A DNA stretch of 60,509 nt from an uncultured Candidatus Sumerlaeota bacterium (GTDB taxonomy: Bacteria; CAYMEV01): assembly GCA_964389675.1 (NCBI GenBank), contig CAYMEV010000011.1, positions 62,001 through 122,509 on the forward strand, read 5' to 3'. The stretch's first letter is position 1; each line of letters begins with the position of its first letter. Both the position numbers and the translations under genes were made by a program. The notes beneath the pieces were generated by a model. It saw only the letters and a list, made by a program, of their open reading frames with translations, had not been told where the DNA came from and ran no database searches. Of this stretch, positions 24,528 to 40,853 are shown in pieces.

Positions 24528-26731
24528 CCCTACTCTCTTATATCGTATTACTGATATGCTTCATAATCTTTTTTCTCCCCCTGTTTACCGGAAAAGTATT
24601 CTACTTCCATGATATAAAGACATTTTACTATCCTGTCTGGCTTCAGGGACAGCAGATCATTTCAGAGGGCTTTGTCCCTTTGTGGAGCATGTATGCTTCT
24701 TTTGGGTTTCCTATCCTTGCAGAAAGCCAGACCGGCCTCCTTAACCCGCTCGGAATGCTGTTCTTCTTCATCTCGGACCCGATAACAGCATTCAGCCTGC
24801 TCATGGTATCAGGTGTTTTGATAGCCCTTTTCGGATCCTGGGCACTTTTCAGAGAGCTTGGTTTTGACAGGGGCACCTCGGTATTCTTATCAGTTACATA
24901 CGGTTTTTCAGGATTTTTCATATATCATCTGATGCATATAAATATAATCCTGCCGGCATCCTATTTTCCCCTTACACTGTTTTTGTGCATCAGGATTCTA
25001 AATACTGATAAAAGGAAAATGCTCCACATTCCGGCCCTGGCACTTACCATAGCTCTCCAGGCTATATCAGGCACTTTTCAGTATGCCCTTTATAATATAA
25101 TCTTCTGCATAATTCTTTCTGTCGTCCTTACAGGTCATAAAACATCCCGCAGGTCATTGCTTTTAATGTGCCTGGTAATTGCAGGAGGCATTATGCTTGC
25201 ATCATTGCAGCTCTTCTCAACGATCGAGCTGGTCAGCCTCTCTGAAAGACAGCAGGGGCTTGACCCTGAGGAAATATCCCAGAAAAGCTACCCTCCTTTC
25301 AGCCTTATTACCTATATATACCCTTACTCTTTCGGATTCCAGAGGCCATCAGACATAATCGGCTATGGCTTTCGAACTCCTTCTTATTACGGACCCGGCG
25401 CTTACTGGGATATAAACAGCTATATGGGGCTGACTTCGATAATACTGTTTTTCATCCTGATTTTGAATATATTCGGCTCAGGGCTTGAAAACAGGAGAAT
25501 AATCCTGATCCTGCTTTTTTTACTCTTTTTGACCTATCTCATAATGATGGGGAAGTATTCGCCATTCTTTGGAGTCCTGGCAAAAATCCCGGTGTTAAGC
25601 TATTTTAGAGGTCTTTCACGCCTTATCTATATTTTTAACCTTATTCTGCTTATCCTGTCAGGTTATGCTCTTAAGGCTATCGGGGAAAAAAGGGTAAGAA
25701 AGTCTTCCTTCCCTGCAGCTGCTTTTGCCTTACTGTTCATTCATCTGATCATTGATGCCTTTTTCAGGCATGTGCTTCAGGGCTATTCTGAAAGACTTCC
25801 TGCATTAATCTCACATTTAAGCTATTTTAACAGCTTAAGCAGAGGCTTTTACAACCGGACACTGGTCTTCGGGCTAATCTCAGCAGCACTCTTATATCTG
25901 TTTTACAGATATCCGAAACTGATATTTGCCCTGATCCTTTTCAATATCATTGATATATACTCAATAAACTCCAGCTACAATACCTGTACAGAAACAGCAG
26001 AAGCATTATCGGAACCGGTGTCTGTCTCTGCAATAAAAAAGACTGCCTATTTTCCGAGGATTGCAAATGCCATAAGACGGCCGCTGCCCTGGCTCGATAC
26101 TGACAATCTTAAGTCTTCGGTCTCACTTATATGGAATGTATCGGATGTTTTCCTGCCATCCCCTCTTCTGCCTGTTAAACTTAAGCTTTTTCTTGAGGAT
26201 AATGCGCTCCTGTACCATCCTTTCCTGCTCAGCGAAAAGATAGACAGGATCTTTGACAGCCTTTCTGATATAAGGTCAGCTGGAATAACACATATCATAC
26301 TGCCTTCCGATTACCTGAATAGATCTAAGGCCCCCGGTATTAAAACCGTATACTCTGATGATCATATCGGAGCCCTTGAAATTGGCGCAGAGCCCCTTAT
26401 CAGCATCTATCCGTCAGGATTCTGCTCTTTCAGCAGTATAAGCCCTGACGGCTATACTGTATCATACAGGACAGGCACTCTGAATGAGGAAGCTGAAAGC
26501 TCTATCCTTATAAGGTACATGCAGTACCCGGGATGGAGATTTTCACTAAGTGGCCAGGAGATAATCCCTTCAGCCTATAATGATATATTCTACAGGATAC
26601 CTGTCCCATCAGGATCAGGTGAACTAAAAGCGGAATATATACCCGGATATTATAAACTTTCTTTATATATCATTATATTTATTGTTGCTATGTCTATTAT
26701 TATTTTATATTTATTTGAATTTAATCATTAA
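24524..26731 (+). CDS. YfhO-family polytopic membrane protein (GT-C-like glycosyltransferase)
   Basis: Frame is open from 24509 and encodes a TM plus HDIKTFYYP..G..PLWS upstream of the tracked TTG (24680). Also YMG, FRGLSR and YPGW motifs. Exact start uncertain (CTG 24524 assumed). Confidence 0.75.
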   Translation: MTLLSYIVLLICFIIFFLPLFTGKVFYFHDIKTFYYPVWLQGQQIISEGFVPLWSMYASFGFPILAESQTGLLNPLGMLFFFISDPITAFSLLMVSGVLIALFGSWALFRELGFDRGTSVFLSVTYGFSGFFIYHLMHINIILPASYFPLTLFLCIRILNTDKRKMLHIPALALTIALQAISGTFQYALYNIIFCIILSVVLTGHKTSRRSLLLMCLVIAGGIMLASLQLFSTIELVSLSERQQGLDPEEISQKSYPPFSLITYIYPYSFGFQRPSDIIGYGFRTPSYYGPGAYWDINSYMGLTSIILFFILILNIFGSGLENRRIILILLFLLFLTYLIMMGKYSPFFGVLAKIPVLSYFRGLSRLIYIFNLILLILSGYALKAIGEKRVRKSSFPAAAFALLFIHLIIDAFFRHVLQGYSERLPALISHLSYFNSLSRGFYNRTLVFGLISAALLYLFYRYPKLIFALILFNIIDIYSINSSYNTCTETAEALSEPVSVSAIKKTAYFPRIANAIRRPLPWLDTDNLKSSVSLIWNVSDVFLPSPLLPVKLKLFLEDNALLYHPFLLSEKIDRIFDSLSDIRSAGITHIILPSDYLNRSKAPGIKTVYSDDHIGALEIGAEPLISIYPSGFCSFSSISPDGYTVSYRTGTLNEEAESSILIRYMQYPGWRFSLSGQEIIPSAYNDIFYRIPVPSGSGELKAEYIPGYYKLSLYIIIFIVAMSIIILYLFEFNH

Positions 26732-26885: not shown

Positions 26886-28304
26886 ATGAATAGGAAAATC
26901 TTCTCAACATCTTCTTATATGCTTATTGCAGTTCTTATCCTGGCCTTATCGGGATATCCATCTCTTTCCCAGGATACAGAAGAGTACTTCAGCTATCCTG
27001 AGTTCATACCGCAAGTATTGCCAGACAGCCCCTTTACAGCAGCCTGTGAAATAATACCTGTTGCAGAGGGCATTAAAGCTATGCTTTCTGCCGGAAGTAT
27101 TGAATCCTCCTATGCGGTAAGGCTCACAAATACCCTTATAGATGCGCACACTTACGATATAATCCTATTTATCGGACTGCCGGAGGATAGATCTGCCATA
27201 CCGCTTCTCATTAACAGTTCGATGGACATCATTTTCAGGTTTTTAGCCGAAAGGGAGTGCATAGATGCTTTAATAGAATTTAAGTACAAAGATCTGGAAA
27301 AGCATCCTGAAACACTTCTTAAAAAGGGCTTCAATTATAAAAGAATAAATGGAAGTCCCCTGTTGGCCCATTTATCGCACGACACATATATCCTTCCCGG
27401 TATATCATTCAGCCTTATCAGATATGCCCTGCCCTTTCCTCAAAAGATAAGGGTCCTTCCGCTCTGGATATCCAGGGATACCCTTTATGTGCCATTGGAG
27501 GGACCGGGCTGTTGCCGGGATGCTTCAGGTTATATATATGATTCAGTCTTTGAAAAGGGCTTCTCGCAGAGTAAGGTATTCTCATTAAAGATCAGAAATG
27601 AATACAGCTATCTCAGTTTTATTGAAAGCAGGCTCAATGCCCTGATCCAAGAACTGAAGGACAACCGGGCAAGCCATGCTTATGCCATCTGCATGGAATT
27701 GATGAGTATACTTAAAACCGACAAAAGCAAAAACGAAGACAAAGGCAAAAACAATATTCCTGAAATATCCCTTACTGACTCTCATAGAGATTATTTATAC
27801 AATTTTCCTAAAGTATTACTTGAAGTTATATCTAATTATCCCGTTAATAAGTGCTACTTTGAATCATCTTATTTTCAAAAACATATTCAGGAGGCAAAAG
27901 CAGTATCTGATGCTTTTGGAAACGGCCCGGACGGAAAAAAACTGACAGGCCTGCTTATGTATATGGATTATTATATCAGAAAACTGAAGGATTCTGATTA
28001 TGATAATGAATCTTTCAAAAAGTACATATCATCATTTTCCCATTTTTCCAGGATGCTTTCTGTGCAGTATTACCGTGATATTGATTTAAATTCATCAGTC
28101 ATATCCCTTCTGGATCTGCTGGAAAGAAGCAATATAAGGATAATATTCACTGATGAAAAGGGTGATCTGTTCTCGGAAAACCCTGATGAAGATATCGAAG
28201 ACCTTATAATTATCGACAGAAAAACGAGAAACTTAAAGCTTTTCAGCAGGAAAACTCAGCATATTACGCTTAAGACTGGAAAGAAAAGCCATCCGGACAT
28301 TTAA
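26886..28304 (+). CDS. Hypothetical exported protein
   Basis: 472-aa ORF with an N-terminal signal peptide (..LALSGYPSLS-Q). No motif recognised. Confidence 0.65.
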   Translation: MNRKIFSTSSYMLIAVLILALSGYPSLSQDTEEYFSYPEFIPQVLPDSPFTAACEIIPVAEGIKAMLSAGSIESSYAVRLTNTLIDAHTYDIILFIGLPEDRSAIPLLINSSMDIIFRFLAERECIDALIEFKYKDLEKHPETLLKKGFNYKRINGSPLLAHLSHDTYILPGISFSLIRYALPFPQKIRVLPLWISRDTLYVPLEGPGCCRDASGYIYDSVFEKGFSQSKVFSLKIRNEYSYLSFIESRLNALIQELKDNRASHAYAICMELMSILKTDKSKNEDKGKNNIPEISLTDSHRDYLYNFPKVLLEVISNYPVNKCYFESSYFQKHIQEAKAVSDAFGNGPDGKKLTGLLMYMDYYIRKLKDSDYDNESFKKYISSFSHFSRMLSVQYYRDIDLNSSVISLLDLLERSNIRIIFTDEKGDLFSENPDEDIEDLIIIDRKTRNLKLFSRKTQHITLKTGKKSHPDI

Positions 28305-29241: not shown

Positions 29242-30453
29242 TCAGTATTCATATTCAGCTCTATCAGCTCTATTATATGAAATTATCCATTCATACCCCC
29301 AGTACCCTTTTTTAGTACGTATATTCACTGAATCTCCGTTATCATAATCCTCATAATCGCTGGAGGAAACACTCAATTTTATGTGTTTTTCAGGATTATT
29401 CCAGTTATTGACAGTAATATGGTATGACTTGGAGTTCTTGTTAGTCGTTATATACTTATCCTGTACGACAGCATTATAGTAATGTACATCAGACTGGTCC
29501 ATGTAGCCGTTTGTAAAGACAAGAAATCCCATTGTACCTAAAATAAAGCCCGGAATTGTGATGGCCAGCAGGACAATTGCAATAGTATGCGAGTCAGATC
29601 TTCCCTTTATTAGGGGAATAATAAATATCCAGAAGAGTAAAATCAGAGGGAGGGAATACTTAAAGGAATCAAGGAAAAGAGAGCCATCCACAAGTTTATA
29701 ATTTATCAGCCCGTATATAAGCATAAATAATCCTGCCGCATCAATGGCAATAGCTGATGCATATAGCATCACCACCGTTTTTTTCCGGGATTTTTCCAGG
29801 CCGGGCATTTCAAAGCCTGCAGACCCGGAAGGCATATCTTCCGTAAGTGCATGGAGCAGGCCTGCGCACCGCTCCAGCTGAGCCCTGTCGAGTTTGTCAA
29901 TCCTGGTTCTGGCCAGTGGAATATTTATGCTGATCTCCCCCTTTTTCATCTCTATTGAACTTACCTTCAGGCCCTCATTATCCAGTATGTCATCTATCTG
30001 TTCCCGCTTCTTTCTGTCACTGAGGAATAAACGGGCAAATTCATCGCTTCCTGTGTTGATGAAGTATTTATCGTCAAAGCTCTTGTCACCTGTCTGAAGC
30101 TCTTTAGTAAGCCCGATTCTCTTTGCAAATGATTCAAAGGAAGACTCTTTCTTTATAATGACCTTTTTATCAAACGGTATGGGGTAAAAGACTTTCAGAT
30201 ATGGCGGCTGGTTCTTTGCCCCCTGAAAATAAAGTATCCTGAGTTTATGCCCATTATGGTCACCATCATAGATATTCTGCAAACCCTTTCTTCTAACTGC
30301 GTTAAATGGCTGCAGAAGGTCATCAATAATGAATTTTTTGGTACTCCTGGATTTTCTTACCGCAAAGATCACGATCAGGATGGTCACAATCACGGATAAA
30401 AAGATAATGGCCATGGCAATGAGAAATGCTGACTGACTTTCCATAACACACAC
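29242..30453 (-). CDS. Hypothetical membrane protein
   Basis: N-terminal TM, soluble domain (TGDKSFDDKYFI), 3 TMs and a C-terminal OB-like beta domain. Confidence 0.6.
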   Translation of the reverse strand: MCVMESQSAFLIAMAIIFLSVIVTILIVIFAVRKSRSTKKFIIDDLLQPFNAVRRKGLQNIYDGDHNGHKLRILYFQGAKNQPPYLKVFYPIPFDKKVIIKKESSFESFAKRIGLTKELQTGDKSFDDKYFINTGSDEFARLFLSDRKKREQIDDILDNEGLKVSSIEMKKGEISINIPLARTRIDKLDRAQLERCAGLLHALTEDMPSGSAGFEMPGLEKSRKKTVVMLYASAIAIDAAGLFMLIYGLINYKLVDGSLFLDSFKYSLPLILLFWIFIIPLIKGRSDSHTIAIVLLAITIPGFILGTMGFLVFTNGYMDQSDVHYYNAVVQDKYITTNKNSKSYHITVNNWNNPEKHIKLSVSSSDYEDYDNGDSVNIRTKKGYWGYEWIISYNRADRAEYEY

Positions 30454-30482: not shown

Positions 30483-31892
30483 TTATTTACTATTATTAAA
30501 TATATAATTATTAATAACTTGTAATATTTTTTCTAATTGAATGCCCCTTGAACCTTTAATCAGTATTTTATCATGATCTTTCAGCTTTGAAATAATAGTA
30601 TCAATACTGTCTTCTTTTCTGAGAAAGCTGTACAGATTCTCATTCCTTACCCGTGATTTAATACTGTAGAACTCACTGCCTATGGTAATGACTGTTTCAA
30701 TCCTCTTGCCGAAAGCGTATCTTACTGATTCCAGATGATACCTTCTGCTTTCTTCGCCAAGCTCAAGCATATCACCTAATATCACCATCTGTTTTTTTCC
30801 CCCCATCACCTTTGAAAATGCATCCAGGGTACATTTAAGTGCATATGGGGAAGAGTTATAGCAGTCTTCATAGATGATATACCCATTGCTTTTATAAAGC
30901 CTGCTTCTCATATCCGTGCCGCTGAATGAGCTTAATCCCTTATAGATGTCAAATGGGGATATCTGAAGGCAATCACAGAGGCATGCTGCAGAGACAGCAT
31001 TTATCAGATTGTGTTCACCCGGCAGCTTCAGCCTGACATCAATAACAGGCAGCCCTGATGGGAGAAGCATAGAAAATTCATGCAGTCCCATACTGTCAAC
31101 TGCATATCTTGCGGGCTTCAGGCTGTATTTATCATTCAGGCTGTATCTGATTGTTTTTCCTTTCCATTTTTCCATAATACCTTCATACAGGATCCTGTCG
31201 TCATTAAAGAATATTATCAGCCCTTCGGGGTCCATATATTCAATAAATTCAAGCTTTGCGTCCCTTATTTCAGACAGACTGCTGAAGAACTCCCTGTGCA
31301 CATCCTTAATATTGAGTACCAATGCAGTATCGGGCTCAATTATCCTGGAAAGCCTGGAGATCTCTCCCTTAAAGCTCATGCCAACTTCAAATATCATTAT
31401 CTCCGGATCATCTTCCATGGAAAGGATTGAAAGAGGTACTCCTATCTGGCTGTTGTAGTTTTTTGGGGTGATGAAGGAGGAAATGCCTGAGCTTGAAAGA
31501 ATGCTTCCAGTCATTTCCTTAACTGTTGTTTTGCCGACACTTCCAGTTATGATAGCCCTTCTTGCCTTCCTGAACCGTTTCATAAAAAGCCTGGCAAGAT
31601 GCTGGACAGCATTTACGGTATCATCCACAAAAAGATAGGATATATCATCCCTTATTCCGGGAAGCCTGCCTGATTCAGAGCATATTATCAGTTTTGCACC
31701 CCTGCTGACAGCTTCCGGAATGAAATCATGACCATCAAAGGTATCCCCTCTTATGGCAAGAAATATATCATTTTCCCTTATCAGCCTTGAATCCGGGCTG
31801 ATCCCCCTTAATGGAGCACTCTTGAGCCTCTTTTCCAGGACAGGAAGGCTGTCAAGATCATCATATAGATCAAAGTGTATATCCGTTCTCAT
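30483..31892 (-). CDS. murF: UDP-MurNAc-tripeptide--D-Ala-D-Ala ligase
   Basis: DSR..G..FDGHDF, TGSVGKTT, NYNSQIGVPL, EVGM...GEI, DCYNSSP, LGDMLELG and KGSRG. Confidence 0.93.
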   Translation of the reverse strand: MRTDIHFDLYDDLDSLPVLEKRLKSAPLRGISPDSRLIRENDIFLAIRGDTFDGHDFIPEAVSRGAKLIICSESGRLPGIRDDISYLFVDDTVNAVQHLARLFMKRFRKARRAIITGSVGKTTVKEMTGSILSSSGISSFITPKNYNSQIGVPLSILSMEDDPEIMIFEVGMSFKGEISRLSRIIEPDTALVLNIKDVHREFFSSLSEIRDAKLEFIEYMDPEGLIIFFNDDRILYEGIMEKWKGKTIRYSLNDKYSLKPARYAVDSMGLHEFSMLLPSGLPVIDVRLKLPGEHNLINAVSAACLCDCLQISPFDIYKGLSSFSGTDMRSRLYKSNGYIIYEDCYNSSPYALKCTLDAFSKVMGGKKQMVILGDMLELGEESRRYHLESVRYAFGKRIETVITIGSEFYSIKSRVRNENLYSFLRKEDSIDTIISKLKDHDKILIKGSRGIQLEKILQVINNYIFNNSK

Positions 31893-31907: not shown

Positions 31908-33062
31908 TCACCTCAGCTTTATGAACAGGAGTGAGACAGCGCTGAAAAGTCCTGCAAGTATCCACAGCCTTATTACAAGCTTTGATTCTGAATATCCCTT
32001 AAATCGGAAATGATCGTGCAGAGGGGCCCTGTAAAGGATTCTCTGGCCGAGATTCAGCCCTCCATTGTTAACCCCTCCTATCTGGTCCTGAATAAAGGAG
32101 GAGAACATTTCCAGGAAGAATAAAAAACCTGCAAAGAACAATAACAGCTCCTGTTTCAGCAGTACAGCGGTAGTAACTATAATACCCCCTATGGCAAGCG
32201 ATCCGCTGTCTCCCATAAATATCTGGGCAGGATAGCTGTTATACCACAAAAAACCTATAACAGACCCGAAAAAGGCTGCAATGAATATGCTGATCTCACT
32301 GGCACCTTCGATCCAGTAAAAGTTCAGATAATCAGACCAGTGCAGATTACCCAGTATATAGGCATATATCGCATAGACCCCGAATGTAAATATACTGCTT
32401 CCTGCCAGAAGGCCGTCAAGGCCGTCTGTAAGGTTCACTCCATTGGTAAATACCCATACAAAGAAAAGGATCACCACAAAATAAATAAGGAATGGCAGAT
32501 AAATGACAGGGTCTTTCATAAAAGGCACAAAAAATGCGCCTTCAAGGCCGGAGCCTTCCGAATACGGCGAGATCTGTTCAAAACAGACAAAAACAGCCAG
32601 CATCAGGCTGAATATGCCCTGCAGGAGCAGTTTGGTAATACGTAATATGCCCTTGTCAGCATCCTTATAGATCCTGATCTTGCTGTAATCATCCAGCAAT
32701 CCCATGGTGCTGAACCAGACCAGTGAGAACAGGAGGATATGTATGAAACGGTTGCTGAGGTCTGCGCATATAACGGATGCAAAAAGGGTCGAAAGGATGA
32801 ATATGATCCCGCCCATCTGTACTGTGCCCTTTTTCCCCTTCTCATCAATGACTGAATGAGCCTTCAGGCTCTCACTGCTGTGGTATTTTCTTGAATAATC
32901 GACAAAACCCATCTTAAACAGCAGTATTATCAGCCTTTTGCCCAAAAAGATAGCTATCAGAAATCCAATTATAGCAGCCAGTATTGCCCTGAAATTTACA
33001 TATCCGAATAACCTTAAAGTTGAAAAATAAGGGAAAAAATACTTGTATATCAGGTAAAGCAT
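31908..33062 (-). CDS. mraY: Phospho-N-acetylmuramoyl-pentapeptide transferase
   Basis: GLLDDY, NGVNLTDGLDGL, NSYPAQIFMGDSGSLAIG and APLHDHF. Confidence 0.93.
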   Translation of the reverse strand: MLYLIYKYFFPYFSTLRLFGYVNFRAILAAIIGFLIAIFLGKRLIILLFKMGFVDYSRKYHSSESLKAHSVIDEKGKKGTVQMGGIIFILSTLFASVICADLSNRFIHILLFSLVWFSTMGLLDDYSKIRIYKDADKGILRITKLLLQGIFSLMLAVFVCFEQISPYSEGSGLEGAFFVPFMKDPVIYLPFLIYFVVILFFVWVFTNGVNLTDGLDGLLAGSSIFTFGVYAIYAYILGNLHWSDYLNFYWIEGASEISIFIAAFFGSVIGFLWYNSYPAQIFMGDSGSLAIGGIIVTTAVLLKQELLLFFAGFLFFLEMFSSFIQDQIGGVNNGGLNLGQRILYRAPLHDHFRFKGYSESKLVIRLWILAGLFSAVSLLFIKLR

Positions 33063-36000
33063 CAGCTCTTCTCCACCATTTTTAATAGCTTATTATAGTT
33101 CTCTTTTATCCTGAACAGCGATTCATGGTCATTACTTGTCAGCGGTATTGAGTCAAGTTTTTCACTTACCCTGGCTATGCTTTCGGCTGTGCTGTTTCGC
33201 TGAAGGTATGAGATTATCCCTTTGATCGCAGAATTTCTCAATTTCCAGTCAAAGGCATCAACTTCTGAAAGGAGCAGTTCAAGGTCGGCAATATTATTGC
33301 TTGTACAGCCAAGAGTAAAAAGAGCTTCATATTTGACCATGAAATACCTGTCTCTGGCAAGCAGCCTTATATGCTTTACAATATCATCATTTACATGCTC
33401 AGCAAAGCCTCTTAATGCAATCAAAGCATAGGCTCTCACCTCAAAATGCCTGTCTGTAAGGCCTGATATAAGAATCTTCTCTACGCTATTATTATATAAC
33501 CCGATCTTATTCAGGGCTTCTATCGCATTTCTACGTATAATTGCATTATATTCATAATCTCCTGTCAGAAAACTGAAAAATATATTTCGTTTCCCGGCCT
33601 TTCTGGTTAATACAGAAGCAAGAAAACCTGTCTCATCATCCTTTCTCATATTCCCGATCAGCTTTACAGCGCAGTTTTTCAGCCACCATGAACGTCCATA
33701 CCTGAATGAATTAAGCCTTAGAATAAGGTATTCTCTATCGAATTTCATAAGCTTTTCATAGGGAAGCTGGGCAAATTTCAGTGCAGGCCCGCTTTCTGGA
33801 TCTTCTTTCCGCATCTGAGCGCCGGTTTTATCCTTTCCAGCCTTTTTCAGAGGCCCCTTAATATTAAGTATCCGGCTGAATACACAAAAACCTGTTGCAG
33901 AAACTGCAAGGGGAATGAACAGTGCCCATCCGCTGTCTGCCCTGTTGAACCTGAAACACAGGATCCCGAATATAAAAAGGCTGAATATTATAATAAGCTT
34001 CGTAGATTCTTCAATCCTGCCATAATTATCAAAAACAGAAGCAGGAGCTGCTTTTCCATCTTTCTTCGGCCAGCCTGTTAAAAGGGAAAGGAGAATGAAA
34101 ACAAGTGCATACAATGAAAACAGGACTGATATGCCTATTGCATTTATATCAAAAAGCGCCTTTAATGCAAGGTCAGATAATAAAATCCCGCTGAATATAA
34201 TAATATAGGACCTTCTTGCAGCAAGCTTCTGCATCCTGATAAGGACATATACTATGGGAATCAGGGTCAGCAGAGGGCTAAGCATAATAAAAAACGGGAA
34301 TATGATGCTTATATTCCTGTTTGATATAAAACCAGAAAGCAAAAATTGCAGTTCCCTCGAAAGCAGAAGAAGGACGATTATTACAGGCAGGGTATAAAAC
34401 AATATTCCCCTGATAAAGCTGTCTATAATGAATATATCATTACCTGTTTCTATTCTGCGGGCAAACTTGCCCCTTACCATTTTTACTATCAGGTTAATGA
34501 ATGGAATTAAGAAAAGCAGCGAGACTGCAAGGTATTTATAAGAAACAGGGTCTTTTTCATTTACATAAAATAATGCGCTGAAGAAGAACAGAGTAAGCAA
34601 AGATGCCTCGCAGAAACAGACCAGATCATTTACCGGGCTGCATCCGGCCTGTCTCTTCATGCCCTTTGCCAGGAAAATAATGAGCAGGACCGCATCCGAG
34701 ACCAGAAAATATATGCTTACCCATATATAAAAATACGAAATGCTCAGACTGCCGTAGAAGAAAACTGATAAGGCGGAAAGATATGCCAGAAACAATACGG
34801 CCTCAAACTCATTTTCTGATTTGTTTATCAGCTTTCTCAGCATATTATCTACTGATATCAGCACCAGTAATGGTATATACAGCACAGATATATTATCATC
34901 AATATTATAAAGAAGCAGATAGCATGCTGTCATTGCAATTATGGCGGAAACAGCATATGATAAATTAGAGACATATATTTTAAGGCCTTCTCTGCAGAAA
35001 TTATCCTTCCTTAAAAGGTAAAGGAAAAAATACATGAGGAAGATAATTGCTGATTCAATACCTGTAAAATCAACTCTCCTGGAGTAATATAGAAAGGCCA
35101 TCGCTATTACTCCAAGTACAATAAGCATACGGACCATAATTGACAGGCTGGTGCGAATATGCCTTAAATGCTTTTCTTTTCTTTCTTTAAGCTCTTCTTC
35201 AATAAACCCTGCTGAAAGCGCTTCGGTATCTGCAGGTTTATAATCCAGAAGATTCTGCTGTATTTTCAGGAAGGATTCATCTTCCCCTAAAAAAGCCTCA
35301 AAAAGCTCTAAAAACCTTTTTTTGCTTATTATTATCTCTGATCTATCACCTTCTGTCTTTTCCCTGTATTCATAAAGTATCATCCCCAGCCCGCTTTTAT
35401 ATATCTCCCTGCAGTTCTTCAGCTGATGCTCACCTGCTATTTCAATTTTTGGAATAAATATGGCGGGTATGCCTGCATCCAGGACCTCGAAAGCAGAACC
35501 TGCACCTCCCCTTACTACTGCAAGGTCGCATATACTAAGGAAATCGGTCATATTGTACAGAAACCTGTGAGGCTTATAGAAATCGGAGATATCCTCAGGT
35601 AAAAAGCCGGATTGCTTTATGACCGAGAGGGTATATTCATATGCATCATATTCATCATCACTGTACAGGCCTGTAGAATGGATGATGCATATTTTCCCCC
35701 TGTATTTCGAAAGCTCCCCTATGGATTCTGCGATCAGCTTATTGATATTCTTTGCACCCTGGCTTCCCCCTGAGACAAGAATGATCTTTCTGTCCTCAGG
35801 TATGCCGAGTTTTTCACGCAGCATTGCCTTTTTATCCTCTTTCATCCCCCTGATGTCCTTTATTTCGTGCCTGACCGGATATCCTGTATATACAGCCTTT
35901 TCGCCGTATAACCTTCTGGTATCATCAAAAGCTGTAAATATCCTGTCGCTAAGGAGGCCGAAAGTGCTGTTTGCCAGACCCGGATCAACATTGGGCTCCA

Positions 36001-36409
36001 CAGAAAGTATCAGGGGAGGCATTTTGAAGACAATTCTGCAGAAAATACGGTATATTGCTGATGAAACAAGAACAGGTACAGATACAAAACCGCCTGATGA
36101 TATGACTATATCCGGCCTGTAGATAAAAAGGTAGAAGATGCTGAGAATAATGCCGAAAAGCATTTCCCTCAGGAAGCTGAACCACTGAAAGGGATCCTTG
36201 CTCCGCGGAAACTGATGTGCCCTGACAGGCAGAAATCTGTAGTCAGAATATTCTTTCCTGTTTATGATCTTATATTCAGGCCTGCTCTTCAGCCCCAGAT
36301 AAAATATCCTGTCAATTTCTATGCTCTTTCTTAGATATCCGGCAAAGGCAAGATTGGGATAGACATGTCCGCCTGTGCCGCCCCCTGCGAGAAAAAGCCT
36401 GTAGCCCAA
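33062..36409 (-). CDS. murG: MurG (GT28) fused to a polytopic membrane domain and C-terminal HEAT repeats
   Basis: AGGGTGGHVYP, SGGFVSVP, EPNVDPGLAN, TGYPVR, GGSQGA, RGGAGS and EHQLKN within ~400 aa. Then ~14 hydrophobic segments and HEAT-like repeats (IRRNAIEAL, D.HFEVRAYAL, D.YFMVKYEAL). TTG start with GGAG RBS. Confidence 0.85.
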   Translation of the reverse strand: MGYRLFLAGGGTGGHVYPNLAFAGYLRKSIEIDRIFYLGLKSRPEYKIINRKEYSDYRFLPVRAHQFPRSKDPFQWFSFLREMLFGIILSIFYLFIYRPDIVISSGGFVSVPVLVSSAIYRIFCRIVFKMPPLILSVEPNVDPGLANSTFGLLSDRIFTAFDDTRRLYGEKAVYTGYPVRHEIKDIRGMKEDKKAMLREKLGIPEDRKIILVSGGSQGAKNINKLIAESIGELSKYRGKICIIHSTGLYSDDEYDAYEYTLSVIKQSGFLPEDISDFYKPHRFLYNMTDFLSICDLAVVRGGAGSAFEVLDAGIPAIFIPKIEIAGEHQLKNCREIYKSGLGMILYEYREKTEGDRSEIIISKKRFLELFEAFLGEDESFLKIQQNLLDYKPADTEALSAGFIEEELKERKEKHLRHIRTSLSIMVRMLIVLGVIAMAFLYYSRRVDFTGIESAIIFLMYFFLYLLRKDNFCREGLKIYVSNLSYAVSAIIAMTACYLLLYNIDDNISVLYIPLLVLISVDNMLRKLINKSENEFEAVLFLAYLSALSVFFYGSLSISYFYIWVSIYFLVSDAVLLIIFLAKGMKRQAGCSPVNDLVCFCEASLLTLFFFSALFYVNEKDPVSYKYLAVSLLFLIPFINLIVKMVRGKFARRIETGNDIFIIDSFIRGILFYTLPVIIVLLLLSRELQFLLSGFISNRNISIIFPFFIMLSPLLTLIPIVYVLIRMQKLAARRSYIIIFSGILLSDLALKALFDINAIGISVLFSLYALVFILLSLLTGWPKKDGKAAPASVFDNYGRIEESTKLIIIFSLFIFGILCFRFNRADSGWALFIPLAVSATGFCVFSRILNIKGPLKKAGKDKTGAQMRKEDPESGPALKFAQLPYEKLMKFDREYLILRLNSFRYGRSWWLKNCAVKLIGNMRKDDETGFLASVLTRKAGKRNIFFSFLTGDYEYNAIIRRNAIEALNKIGLYNNSVEKILISGLTDRHFEVRAYALIALRGFAEHVNDDIVKHIRLLARDRYFMVKYEALFTLGCTSNNIADLELLLSEVDAFDWKLRNSAIKGIISYLQRNSTAESIARVSEKLDSIPLTSNDHESLFRIKENYNKLLKMVEKS

Positions 36410-36422
36410 GTCCTATCTCCTG

Positions 36423-37832
36423 TTATATATTAAAATCAAATTCTTCCAGCAGGTCAGGGATAATTATCCTGTCCTTATCCCTGATATCAAACCTGTCTTC
36501 GATCTTTGCCTTGAATTCTGTAAGTGAATCAATTTCACCATGCACCAGTATTACTTTTGGAGGGATCCTGTCAAAATCTGCAAGCCAGTCAAGCATATCG
36601 TTGTAGTCTCCATGCGAAGATAGCCCTGTCATCTGCCTTACTTTCAGCTTTACAGGAAAATAGCTTCCATGTATTTTTATCTTTTTGATTCCGTTAAGTA
36701 TTGCATCCCCTCTGGTACCCGGACTCTGAAAACCGCTGAGCAGCATCATATTGTCAGGGTTTGGAAGCCTGTATTTCAGGTGGTGCAGTATTCTTCCCCC
36801 TGAAAGCATGCCGCTTGCTGAAATAAGTATCATAGGCCCTGCTTTCTCATTGATCTTTTTGCTTTCATTGGGAGTGGTTGTAAATATTGTCCTTTCCGGG
36901 TAAAGCCTGTTGAATTTACGGAAATAACTGCTCAGCTCCAGCTTCTTCTTATTATATATATGTGTTGCCTTTATTGCAAGAGGACTGTCGACATAGAGCG
37001 ATACCGCAGGAGGAAGCTTTCCTTCAGTTTCCATCTGGTAGAGGTAAAAGAGTATGTTCTGTGTCCTTTCCACTGCAAATGCAGGTATTATAAGGGTTGA
37101 TTCCTTTTTGAGTATATATTTTATGCAGTCATCCAGGACTTCGGTTATATCCTCTTCCTCATGGAGCCTGTTGCCGTATGTGCCTTCCATTATCAGAATA
37201 TCCACATCCTTCTTTATAGCTGGATCAGGCGATATATCATCATCCCTGGAATTTCCGAAATCACCGGTAAAAAGCATCTTGAATGGCTTATTATCCCTTA
37301 AGACCTTGAATTCAATAAAGGCGGACCCGAATATATGCCCTGCATTTGAAAATTTAAACTCGAATACATCATTCACTCGAAAAGGTGTTTCATAATCAAT
37401 TCCTCTCAGCAGCTGGCTTGCTGCGATAGCATCCTGTGTATCATACAGCGGCAATGGTTCCAGGTGCTTTGAATACCCCCTTTTTCTTGCAAACTTTGTA
37501 TCCTCTTCCTGTATATGGGCACTGTCGGCAAGAAGAATTTCTGTCAGTTCCTTGGTGGTCCTGGTGCATATTATAGGATTATCATAACCGAAATGTGTCA
37601 TCCTCGGCAAATAACCGCTGTGGTCTATATGCGCATGACTGAGGAAGATATAATCTATAGGCATCCTGGTGATACCGTCTGTACTCCAGTTCATTTCCCT
37701 GAGTTTTTTCTTCCCCTGGAACAGCCCGCAGTCAAATAGAAACCTGATTGATTTCCCTTTGTAATCAGCTACTACATAATGCTTTGACCCGGTTACGGTC
37801 TGCGCTGCACCAAAAAATTTAATCTTTGACAT
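36423..37832 (-). CDS. Metallo-beta-lactamase / beta-CASP ribonuclease
   Basis: FGAAQTVTGS, DCGLFQG, HAHIDH, AGHIFGS, EGTYGNR, AVER, SGMLSGGR, SSHGD and VHGE. Confidence 0.92.
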   Translation of the reverse strand: MSKIKFFGAAQTVTGSKHYVVADYKGKSIRFLFDCGLFQGKKKLREMNWSTDGITRMPIDYIFLSHAHIDHSGYLPRMTHFGYDNPIICTRTTKELTEILLADSAHIQEEDTKFARKRGYSKHLEPLPLYDTQDAIAASQLLRGIDYETPFRVNDVFEFKFSNAGHIFGSAFIEFKVLRDNKPFKMLFTGDFGNSRDDDISPDPAIKKDVDILIMEGTYGNRLHEEEDITEVLDDCIKYILKKESTLIIPAFAVERTQNILFYLYQMETEGKLPPAVSLYVDSPLAIKATHIYNKKKLELSSYFRKFNRLYPERTIFTTTPNESKKINEKAGPMILISASGMLSGGRILHHLKYRLPNPDNMMLLSGFQSPGTRGDAILNGIKKIKIHGSYFPVKLKVRQMTGLSSHGDYNDMLDWLADFDRIPPKVILVHGEIDSLTEFKAKIEDRFDIRDKDRIIIPDLLEEFDFNI

Positions 37833-39173: not shown

Positions 39174-40853
39174 TTAATCCTCAAAAAATGGATTGAGTTC
39201 CTCTATTTCTTCATTCTGAAGGATCTCAAAGATCTTTTCCGGAGTCTCGGCAGCAATAAGCTGCTCTTTTATATCGGGATTATGGCCGAATATCTTTGCA
39301 ACTGTTGCAAGAGCATTCAGGTGAAGGTCATAATGAGCTTTTGGCGTTGCAATCAGAATAACAATATGAACTGGCCGGTCATCCAGGGCCTGAAAATCTA
39401 TTCCATTCTTGAAAATACCTATAACGCCGCGGATTTTCGGCCCGCCTTCTATAATTGCATGGGGTATGGCAATATTATCGCCGATTCCTGTCGAGGATTC
39501 CCTTTCCCTGTCCATTACGCTCTTCAAAAGCTGGTTATGCTCTACATCCTTGCACTTATGGACCTTATACAGAAAATCTACCATCATCTCAAGAGCATTC
39601 CATTTATTGCCTGCTTTGGAATGTATAACAATATACTCCTCCTGGAGAAAATCAAGAAGGCGCAGCCGGTTCTTTGCCTCTTCGCCGGACCGGCGGATTA
39701 CCCAGGATGTCATCACAGGCCCTATAAGTTCGAAGAATATTACAGCAGTAAGTATTATGCCGCTTATTTCTGATGAAATTGAACTGAATGCCGGATTTCC
39801 GCTTATAAATAAAATCAGTATTATTGCAAGGCCGGACAGCGGATAGAGAGAAAATCCCACCGCATGCTGCACTGTATTGCTGGTTTTCGCAAAATATGCT
39901 CCTGTCCAGGGGCCTGCATATTTGCCGGCAAAGCGCAGGATTATCAGGATGATCCCTGCGATCCCTGCACTGTAAAGGACTCTAAAGTTGATATGAATAC
40001 CTATGAGGACAAAGAAGATCATATAAATCTCATTCTCTATTTCAGTAAGCGCGCTGAAGAATTTTCCCCTGTGCTTTGAGAAGTTCGTAATGATCATCCC
40101 GAGAAAAAGAGCAGATAACAGGCTGCTGAAGTGAAATGTTTCTGAAATACCGACAGTTATGAATACTGCGAATATGACCATGCTGAAAAATGAAATATTC
40201 TGCCTGCTCTTATTGCTCAGCATTATAAGCATAAGGCCTACCGATCCGCCAAGTATCAGCGATTCAAAAAGATAGATCTCCGGCTGGATCAATGCATTTC
40301 TCAGGCTGAATCCGCCTGCATGGGCTATCATATGAAACACCGAATAGAATATGATAAGTACAATTACATTGTTCAGCGCTACAACTGCTAGTATTGTCTT
40401 GGTCAATATCCCCCTGGCCTTTTTTTCCATAACAATATGAATGATAACCTCAGGTGTTGTCAATCCCGCAATAATTGAACAGAGAAGGCTGACCTGAAGT
40501 GATACGCCAGCAATATAGTAAAGCCCGCAGAAAACAAGAGGCATTACTGCAAAAAGGTCAGCGAATGTAATCCAGAGGATTCTCCTGCCTGCATTCTTAA
40601 GCCTTACCAGATCAAGATGGCTCCCGATGGTCAATCCTACAAGGCCCATTATAAAATTGATTATAGGCCACAGCTGGTTAAATGCCTGGTGTGAAACCAT
40701 GTGAAGGAAATAGGGGCCGAGCAATATCCCTCCGATCAGCTGGCCTGTCTCGGTGGGGAGTTTTGTGAGCTTTGCAAGCCTGGTAAACAGCATCCCGGTC
40801 GCGATCAGAACAGAAAGAAGAAGAAGAGGGCTTACATTATCAAGGACTGCCAT
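39174..40853 (-). CDS. Cation:proton antiporter (CPA2-like) fused to a PTS EIIA domain
   Basis: About 12 TMs (KLP..TG.LIGGILLGP, FFVLIG, ELIGP), then RE...STGIG.NIAIPHA (phospho-His) and ALDDRPVH. Confidence 0.88.
   Translation of the reverse strand: MAVLDNVSPLLLLSVLIATGMLFTRLAKLTKLPTETGQLIGGILLGPYFLHMVSHQAFNQLWPIINFIMGLVGLTIGSHLDLVRLKNAGRRILWITFADLFAVMPLVFCGLYYIAGVSLQVSLLCSIIAGLTTPEVIIHIVMEKKARGILTKTILAVVALNNVIVLIIFYSVFHMIAHAGGFSLRNALIQPEIYLFESLILGGSVGLMLIMLSNKSRQNISFFSMVIFAVFITVGISETFHFSSLLSALFLGMIITNFSKHRGKFFSALTEIENEIYMIFFVLIGIHINFRVLYSAGIAGIILIILRFAGKYAGPWTGAYFAKTSNTVQHAVGFSLYPLSGLAIILILFISGNPAFSSISSEISGIILTAVIFFELIGPVMTSWVIRRSGEEAKNRLRLLDFLQEEYIVIHSKAGNKWNALEMMVDFLYKVHKCKDVEHNQLLKSVMDRERESSTGIGDNIAIPHAIIEGGPKIRGVIGIFKNGIDFQALDDRPVHIVILIATPKAHYDLHLNALATVAKIFGHNPDIKEQLIAAETPEKIFEILQNEEIEELNPFFED

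Follow-up and report, generated by a model that had tools for sequence, protein, structure and literature searches.

The window analysed here, a 60,509 nt stretch of contig CAYMEV010000011.1 from an uncultured Candidatus Sumerlaeota bacterium, encodes the genome's only MurG as part of a single 1115-residue polypeptide, in which the glycosyltransferase is followed by 14 predicted transmembrane (TM) helices and a HEAT-like tail. By sequence comparison this fusion belongs to a widespread and apparently undescribed subfamily of HEAT-tailed, mraY-coupled MurG proteins, and what appears to be new at this locus is the orphan 14-TM block only, since HEAT-tailed MurGs are widespread and MurJ is often either fused to them or encoded by the next gene but one. 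We favour, giving it about an even chance, a reading in which the block is mainly a membrane platform or tether that keeps MurG and the HEAT tail next to MraY, while canonical MurJ proteins carry out the flipping.

The fusion gene lies at positions 33062-36409 on the minus strand, and both the open reading frame (ORF) list and the sequence give a single frame that begins at a TTG codon and ends with a TGA stop codon at 33064-33062; an AGGAG Shine-Dalgarno-like motif (36417..36421, minus strand) can be read from the sequence 7 nt 5' of the start. The initial annotation had described one unbroken 1115-aa ORF in three parts, and both statements hold, although it gave no strand. Using Pfam, hydropathy and AlphaFold2 (AF2), we place MurG at residues 1-352 (35354..36409, minus strand), 14 hydrophobic helices at residues 422-848 (33866..35146, minus strand) and the HEAT-like alpha-solenoid tail at residues 896-1115 (33065..33724, minus strand). 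These are joined by two predicted cytoplasmic linkers, one of residues 353-421 (35147..35353, minus strand), which is 38% and 32% identical to its counterparts in two orthologues, and a Lys-rich one of residues 849-895 (33725..33865, minus strand).

An ORF of this kind might be an artefact, in which a mis-assembly or a lost stop has run three genes together (murG, one for a membrane protein and one for HEAT repeats). The probable source run is indeed the only one to cover the MurG-to-TM junction (about 35154-35325) in this strain; for this junction it is the orthologues that supply support. A genome of the same genus (G001) contains a colinear 1110-aa ORF with 54% identity, which likewise has a TTG start and is flanked by a 469-aa ORF upstream, the size of the window's beta-CASP gene, and by mraY downstream. 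A partial protein from a third assembly (P0004, 45% identity) retains both domain junctions. Near-identical DNA is present in contigs from runs of three other studies, and one of these contigs spans positions 33558-34150, from the last membrane helices into the HEAT region, with 0 differences. No stand-alone relative of the block was found among 1.84 billion representative proteins or among 7999 proteins of 245-790 aa selected as the best word-sharing candidates. Because the same frame is present in G001 and P0004, and because an independent contig crosses the TM-to-HEAT junction, a mis-assembly or lost stop codon is very unlikely as the origin of the long ORF, and we regard the artefact as scarcely credible. 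Runs with near-identical DNA include marine-sediment and sediment metagenomes of several studies; no RNA dataset is present among the sequencing runs listed with such DNA.

The amino-terminal domain is readily recognized as a GT28 glycosyltransferase, with Pfam matches above cut-off to Glyco_transf_28 (PF03033; residues 6-150, 51.5 bits, E 1.4e-13) and Glyco_tran_28_C (PF04101; residues 209-351, 69.7 bits, E 4e-19). The motifs GGTGGH, GGF, GGSQGA, RGGAGSxFE and HQxxN, which we take to be the MurG signature, are all found and are aligned to those of the solved MurGs 3s2u, 7d1i and 1f0k, and the domain can be aligned to solved MurGs across residues 2-347. MurG, the lipid II synthase, is in the textbook view a peripheral enzyme of about 360 aa. 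The canonical enzymes of Escherichia coli (1F0K/1NLM), Pseudomonas aeruginosa (3S2U) and Acinetobacter baumannii (7D1I) have in common with the fusion the two-domain GT28 signature and the nucleotide-sugar and G-loop motifs, although they are peripheral proteins of about 360 aa encoded in the dcw cluster, whereas the fusion is 1115 aa long, is predicted to be membrane-integral, and is encoded directly before mraY and murF. The fusion and the HEAT-tailed MurGs also have an insertion in the C-domain that is lacking from canonical MurG.

The fusion is the only MurG of this genome (G000; 3.57 Mb in 58 contigs, 93.79% complete), in which its ORF is the sole match to the NCBIfam murG model TIGR01133; the second murG that the initial annotation had proposed looking for is therefore not found there, and G001 likewise gives one match only to the whole fusion protein. 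As for the flippases, of which the same annotation had raised murJ and amj, there are two canonical MurJ genes in G000 (274.6 and 264.7 bits) and two SEDS genes, no match to Amj was found in the genome search, and G001 has two strong MurJ matches. One MraY in G000 scores above cut-off, and it is the neighbour of the fusion. Since the fusion is the only MurG match in a genome that also encodes MraY, MurF, MurJ and SEDS proteins, its MurG domain is probably catalytically competent and would transfer N-acetylglucosamine (GlcNAc) to lipid I. The lineage itself appears to be isolated: the 40 related genomes returned comprise one of the same genus and 39 labelled merely as belonging to the same domain. 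In three other genomes (G016, G035 and G036) there are long open frames around murG, in regions that are dense with long overlapping frames.

The relationship to other HEAT-tailed proteins is evident from a protein search that returned 23 non-self relatives, every one of which is a MurG with a HEAT tail. The TM block recurs in two of them, the orthologues P0003 and P0004, and is lacking from the other 21; the survey for the same fusion that had been suggested at the outset thus finds the HEAT tail throughout and the block in these two alone. Seven of the 23 are MurG-HEAT proteins of about 680-720 aa without a TM domain, ten have an N-terminal MurJ (two of these ten being fragments), and four (P0019, P0022, P0023 and P0024) have the order MurG, an insert of ~130 aa, MurJ and HEAT, such that MurJ is part of the same polypeptide in 14 of the 23. 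A first scan of genome contigs with the whole fusion protein gave no match. We also searched species-representative genomes with a HEAT profile built from three tails, an alignment of eight sequences being too diverse to yield search patterns, and obtained 156 confirmed loci, of which the best 80 provide the figures that follow. These consist of 59 MurG-HEAT loci, 19 MurJ-MurG-HEAT loci and two with HEAT alone, from the Syntrophobacteraceae, other Desulfobacterota and Acidobacteriota, and include the cultured Desulfacinum infernum DSM 9756 and D. hydrothermale DSM 13146. The two HEAT-only loci (L052 and L094) have a HEAT ORF without a MurG match (498 and 306 aa from stop to stop), and may represent frameshifts, genes that have been split or separate HEAT proteins ahead of mraY.

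The association with mraY is nearly constant: of the 77 loci whose downstream DNA is long enough to tell, 76 have mraY as the next gene. The commonest spacing is a 4 nt overlap (49 loci); in the Sumerlaeota genome the fusion stop and the mraY start share 1 nt (TGATG). An acidobacterial chromosome has the gene order MurG-HEAT, MraY, MurJ. The HEAT-fused gene gives the only strong MurG match in D. infernum and in two metagenome-assembled genome (MAG) chromosomes, and in two complete MAG chromosomes the fused MurJ is the only MurJ. A representative of the family is the 722-aa ORF of D. infernum DSM 9756 (locus L066); like further examples from Syntrophobacteraceae and Acidobacteriota MAGs, it is automatically named and uncharacterized. 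What the fusion shares with such proteins is its place in a MurG clade, a homologous HEAT tail, an overlapping mraY downstream and its status as sole MurG of the genome; it differs in the TM block, which is present in none of the 80 surveyed loci nor in the 21 other database relatives, where the membrane domain, if there is one, is a recognizable MurJ. The MraY that adjoins the fusion (31908-33062) is 43-46% identical to the MraYs behind HEAT-tailed MurGs of the Syntrophobacteria and Acidobacteriota, a closer match than that of the MurG domain, which is about 30-34% identical to its counterparts in these groups.

In a tree of MurG domains the HEAT-linked proteins form a clade with support of 100/99 against four canonical MurGs, and the three-member TM-block lineage stands on a stem of 1.79 substitutions per site. 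Its sister group (99/96) is a pair of MurJ-MurG-HEAT proteins rather than the internal-MurJ group, although the long branch makes this placement uncertain. We considered that the block might be an in-situ remnant of a MurJ held in common with the MurG-x-MurJ-HEAT group, and rejected this because the MurG tree puts the lineage elsewhere; the long branch leaves some doubt.

The HEAT tail has a Pfam HEAT_2 match at residues 955-1033 (29.7 bits, cut-off 27.7) and an AF2 model of 13 helices with a predicted local distance difference test score (pLDDT) of 88.2 and a predicted TM-score (pTM) of 0.85. Its best Foldseek matches are the HEAT-like alphaRep designs (6ft5, E 1.5e-4, TMq 0.62), followed by the CpcE/F lyase (5n3u) and YibA (1oyz). 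In alignment it is 23-30% identical to other family tails and has the motifs N-x-A/G-[VI]KL[IA]G, RRN, D-x-[HY][FY]E[VA]R and T-[ST]-x-[DN]..F-x-[IV]-[KR] in common with them. As modelled, the tail is a generic protein-binding solenoid, whose structure by itself points to no partner. The initial annotation had seen in it a docking platform or scaffold, which fits the family-wide link to mraY in 76 of 77 loci; a complex prediction of MraY with the HEAT tail reached a median score of 0.28 against a mark of 0.32. The structural comparison that had been proposed together with this role gave an uneven result: the HEAT tail has a confident model with HEAT-like matches, and no fold was obtained for the block, for which AF2 with the three-sequence alignment gave a pLDDT of 39.5 and a pTM of 0.28. 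This model is unusable, and structural matches to it would be meaningless.

Hydropathy and the AF2 secondary structure agree on 14 helices within residues 422-848, in line with the approximate number first noted, and the predicted topology has both the N and the C terminus of the block on the cytoplasmic side (N-in/C-in). All 14 hydrophobic segments are retained in both orthologues and the loops are short, none exceeding 24 aa; a long cytoplasmic loop precedes the last two helices. The numbers of lysine and arginine residues in predicted cytoplasmic versus periplasmic loops are 19:7, 19:6 and 21:3 in the three orthologues, a bias that fits an N-in/C-in prediction with MurG and HEAT in the cytoplasm. 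With both ends of the module predicted to be cytoplasmic, MurG and HEAT would therefore remain on the cytoplasmic face. The block is not, however, highly conserved overall. Between G000 and G001 it is 44% identical, as compared with 33-38% for the linkers, 50% for the HEAT tail, 67% and 80% for the two MurJ proteins (MurJ-b and MurJ-a), 72% for the MurG domain, 78% for the beta-CASP RNase and 83% for MraY. It thus appears weakly constrained as a whole, being kept only slightly better than the linkers, and its conservation, as judged from three sequences, is confined to one genus-level lineage.

These observations lead us to the platform reading, in which a 14-helix module would have been inserted, in a genus-level lineage, between the MurG catalytic domain and its HEAT tail, turning a normally peripheral enzyme into an integral membrane protein. 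The module would anchor MurG and the HEAT tail in the bilayer next to MraY, the enzyme that acts one step earlier at the membrane, which would allow lipid I to be handed directly from MraY to MurG, and lipid II flipping would be left to the two separate canonical MurJ proteins. The topology, the platform role and the contact with MraY are all inferred. We favour this reading because flippases are present, with two canonical MurJ and two SEDS proteins in G000 and two strong MurJ matches in G001, and because sequence change in the block is nearly as rapid as in the linkers. The even helix count in all three orthologues and the positive-inside bias are also what a topological spacer needs; the even number may be kept because the loss of one helix would place the HEAT tail in the periplasm.

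A number of observations weigh against this interpretation, and two of them concern the enzyme itself. The TIGR01133 match, at 156.7 bits (E 7.6e-46), is below the equivalog cut-off of 250.25 bits, and residues 137-140 (35990-36001, minus strand) read VEPN where related and solved MurGs read HEQN. It is for these two reasons that MurG activity is treated as inferred rather than shown. All three orthologues have VEPN at this position (IEPN in P0004), with E and N retained and H and Q lost. The HEAT-fused sole MurGs of three other genomes likewise fall under the TIGR01133 cut-off (216-240 bits), which is exceeded in only nine of 14 control genomes. The remaining points concern the block. Fourteen helices are more than a tether requires; there are almost no indels across them in the orthologues, patches such as RGI[IL]FYTLP[VI]II and LSPLLxLIP are strongly conserved, and the polar or acidic residues E601, N639 and D746, which lie inside predicted helices, are invariant. 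Features of this kind are more often seen in a transporter or in a membrane domain that binds ligands. Moreover, MurJ is the only membrane domain fused in relatives, the fused MurJ is the sole one in two complete genomes, and a language-model feature lookup in the Atlas with the block of an orthologue, restricted to named clusters, returned MOP-type clusters (Polysacc_synt, Polysacc_synt_3, MurJ and MatE) with scores of 0.90-0.91.

Alternatively, the block might be an active flippase that exports lipid II or some other undecaprenyl-linked glycan, either as a diverged member of the MurJ/MOP proteins or as a new family, such that one polypeptide both makes and exports its product, as the MurJ-MurG-HEAT fusions of its relatives presumably do. 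The initial annotation had raised such an undescribed flippase, and had named the presence of a canonical murJ as one of three observations that would together count against it; a canonical murJ is present, and the block is conserved, yet weakly (44%) and in one genus-level lineage. We consider an active flippase possible, if doubtful. The 14 relatives with MurJ in the same polypeptide are suggestive, particularly the four that have it where the block lies, between the MurG and HEAT parts, as is the finding that the fused MurJ is the sole one in two complete MAG chromosomes. MurJ, the lipid II flippase of the MOP superfamily (PF03023), has 14 TM helices with both of its ends in the cytoplasm, and the block, with 14 predicted helices and a predicted N-in/C-in topology, matches this arrangement; the long cytoplasmic loop ahead of the last two helices and the invariant intramembrane E601, N639 and D746 are also in keeping with transport. 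Yet the two canonical MurJ genes in both species stand against it, as does the 44% identity of the block between them, compared with 67-80% for the MurJs, and the sister group in the MurG tree consists of N-terminal-MurJ proteins rather than internal-MurJ ones, albeit on a long branch.

Direct comparison with MurJ is similarly discouraging. When the block was aligned by hhalign to MurJ domains (sets of 4, 8, 12 and 31 relatives), the probabilities were 0.1-0.5% and the scores no better than those obtained with SEDS, MraY, a Na/H exchanger or an unrelated polytopic ORF as controls, whereas the positive control of MurJ against MurJ gave 100%; against the genome's own two SEDS proteins the probability was 0.2%. 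At E<=10, Pfam has no match for this block, the two weak domain-of-unknown-function (DUF) matches being on single orthologues, and a profile search of PDB sequences found nothing. The statement that the TM block carries no recognizable MurJ (PF03023) or SEDS (PF01098) signal is thus borne out by the Pfam and hhalign nulls. The conserved arginines of the first MurJ helix are not identifiable in the block when compared by eye on the alignment, and the block evolves much faster than the genome's two genuine MurJs. A hydropathy-profile alignment of block and MurJ had no discriminating power, the forward score of 214 being below the 234 of the reversed control and similar to those for MraY and NhaP. 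The MOP fold consists of two six-helix lobes plus TM13-14; tests for internal repeats in the block (7+7, 6+6 and 5+5) gave probabilities of <=1%. An exhaustive phmmer search of 1,835,955,588 representative proteins recovered the two orthologues (44% and 33% identity) as the only relatives of the block, a profile search yielded none when run on the 7999 proteins of 245-790 aa that ranked best by shared words, and there is no paralogue of the block in its own genome.

The Atlas lookup is also less telling than it may seem. Although the ten best family-bearing matches of the orthologue's block all fall in one clan, the window's own block gave no usable match, the recognition value of 2270 is under the mark of 2300 with 118-137 of 256 features shared, and a third of shuffled proteins also give ten out of ten matches in one clan, so that by its own calibration the lookup suggests a weak lean of the block towards the MOP superfamily. 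The block could be a MurJ/MOP-type domain that has diverged past recognition, or it could be an unrelated membrane protein. In its fullest form, the transport interpretation makes the block a working transporter of lipid-linked precursors, from a new MOP branch of MurJ descent or a wholly new flippase family, hard-wired to the sole MurG, with the HEAT tail linking it to MraY as well; this we put forward a touch more tentatively than flippase activity in general.

It is rather unlikely, in our estimate, that the block instead senses or regulates the pool of lipid carrier, by binding undecaprenyl phosphate or lipid I/II in the membrane and then gating MurG or bringing in partners by way of the HEAT tail, with no transport involved. 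Its conserved intramembrane polar residues and proline-rich helices would suit such a role, as would its placement between a catalytic domain and a protein-binding solenoid, and a regulatory module tolerates fast sequence change better than an essential one. In Pfam and PDB sequences at E<=10, however, the block has no similarity to known sensor domains, and AF2 gave no usable fold. A comparable insertion is seen in none of the 80 surveyed relatives, and a sensor function would therefore not be general to the family.

The genes adjacent to the fusion are on the same strand. Downstream, the ATG of mraY (31908..33062, minus strand; 384 aa, TIGR00445 239.3 bits, above cut-off) overlaps the fusion TGA, and a murF-type Mur ligase gene (30483..31892, minus strand) follows 15 nt downstream of mraY. 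Upstream is a gene for a beta-CASP/RMMBL RNase of the metallo-beta-lactamase fold (36423-37832, minus strand), whose stop is 13 nt before the fusion start. In the vicinity of the mur genes, three further ORFs are without a Pfam match at E<=0.001: a polytopic one of 683 aa (24680-26731, plus strand), one of 472 aa (26886-28304, plus strand) and one of 403 aa with membrane helices (29242-30453, minus strand). A 559-aa ORF (39174-40853, minus strand) combines a Na+/H+ exchanger-type membrane domain with a C-terminal phosphotransferase system (PTS) EIIA-2 domain.

The manner in which lipid I and lipid II are handed over among MraY, MurG and the flippase is still debated, and an alternative lipid II synthase is reportedly the subject of one published study. 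Full-text literature searches found no paper on a MurG-HEAT, MurG-MurJ or MurG-membrane-domain fusion. Other peptidoglycan-precursor enzymes are, like those described here, fused in one polypeptide: natural Mur chimeras that have been surveyed include MurE-MurF, MurG-MurC, MurC-MurB, MurC-Ddl, MurD-FtsW and MraY-MurG, and have been interpreted as stabilizing a Mur complex (PMC10214165). Among the chimeras listed there, none is a MurG-MurJ, MurG-HEAT or MurG-membrane-domain fusion, with 'HEAT' occurring 0 times and MurJ once, in a figure legend, although a supplementary figure may list more (PMC10214165).

In summary, judging from the HEAT-tailed MurG/MraY pair and its MurJ fusions, many uncultured bacteria may hard-wire these steps of peptidoglycan precursor synthesis, and the locus described here is an extreme case, in which the sole MurG is predicted to be permanently embedded in the membrane through a domain that lacks detectable relatives beyond two orthologues. 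If the block handles lipid II, it would constitute a new flippase-like family and would serve as a natural experiment on how synthesis and export can be coupled, and if it is a true transporter, a deep-branching sediment lineage would possess a single-polypeptide machine that both makes and flips lipid II. If it is only a tether, then MurG tolerates, and perhaps benefits from, permanent integration into the membrane, and the HEAT tail would be the conserved piece to study.

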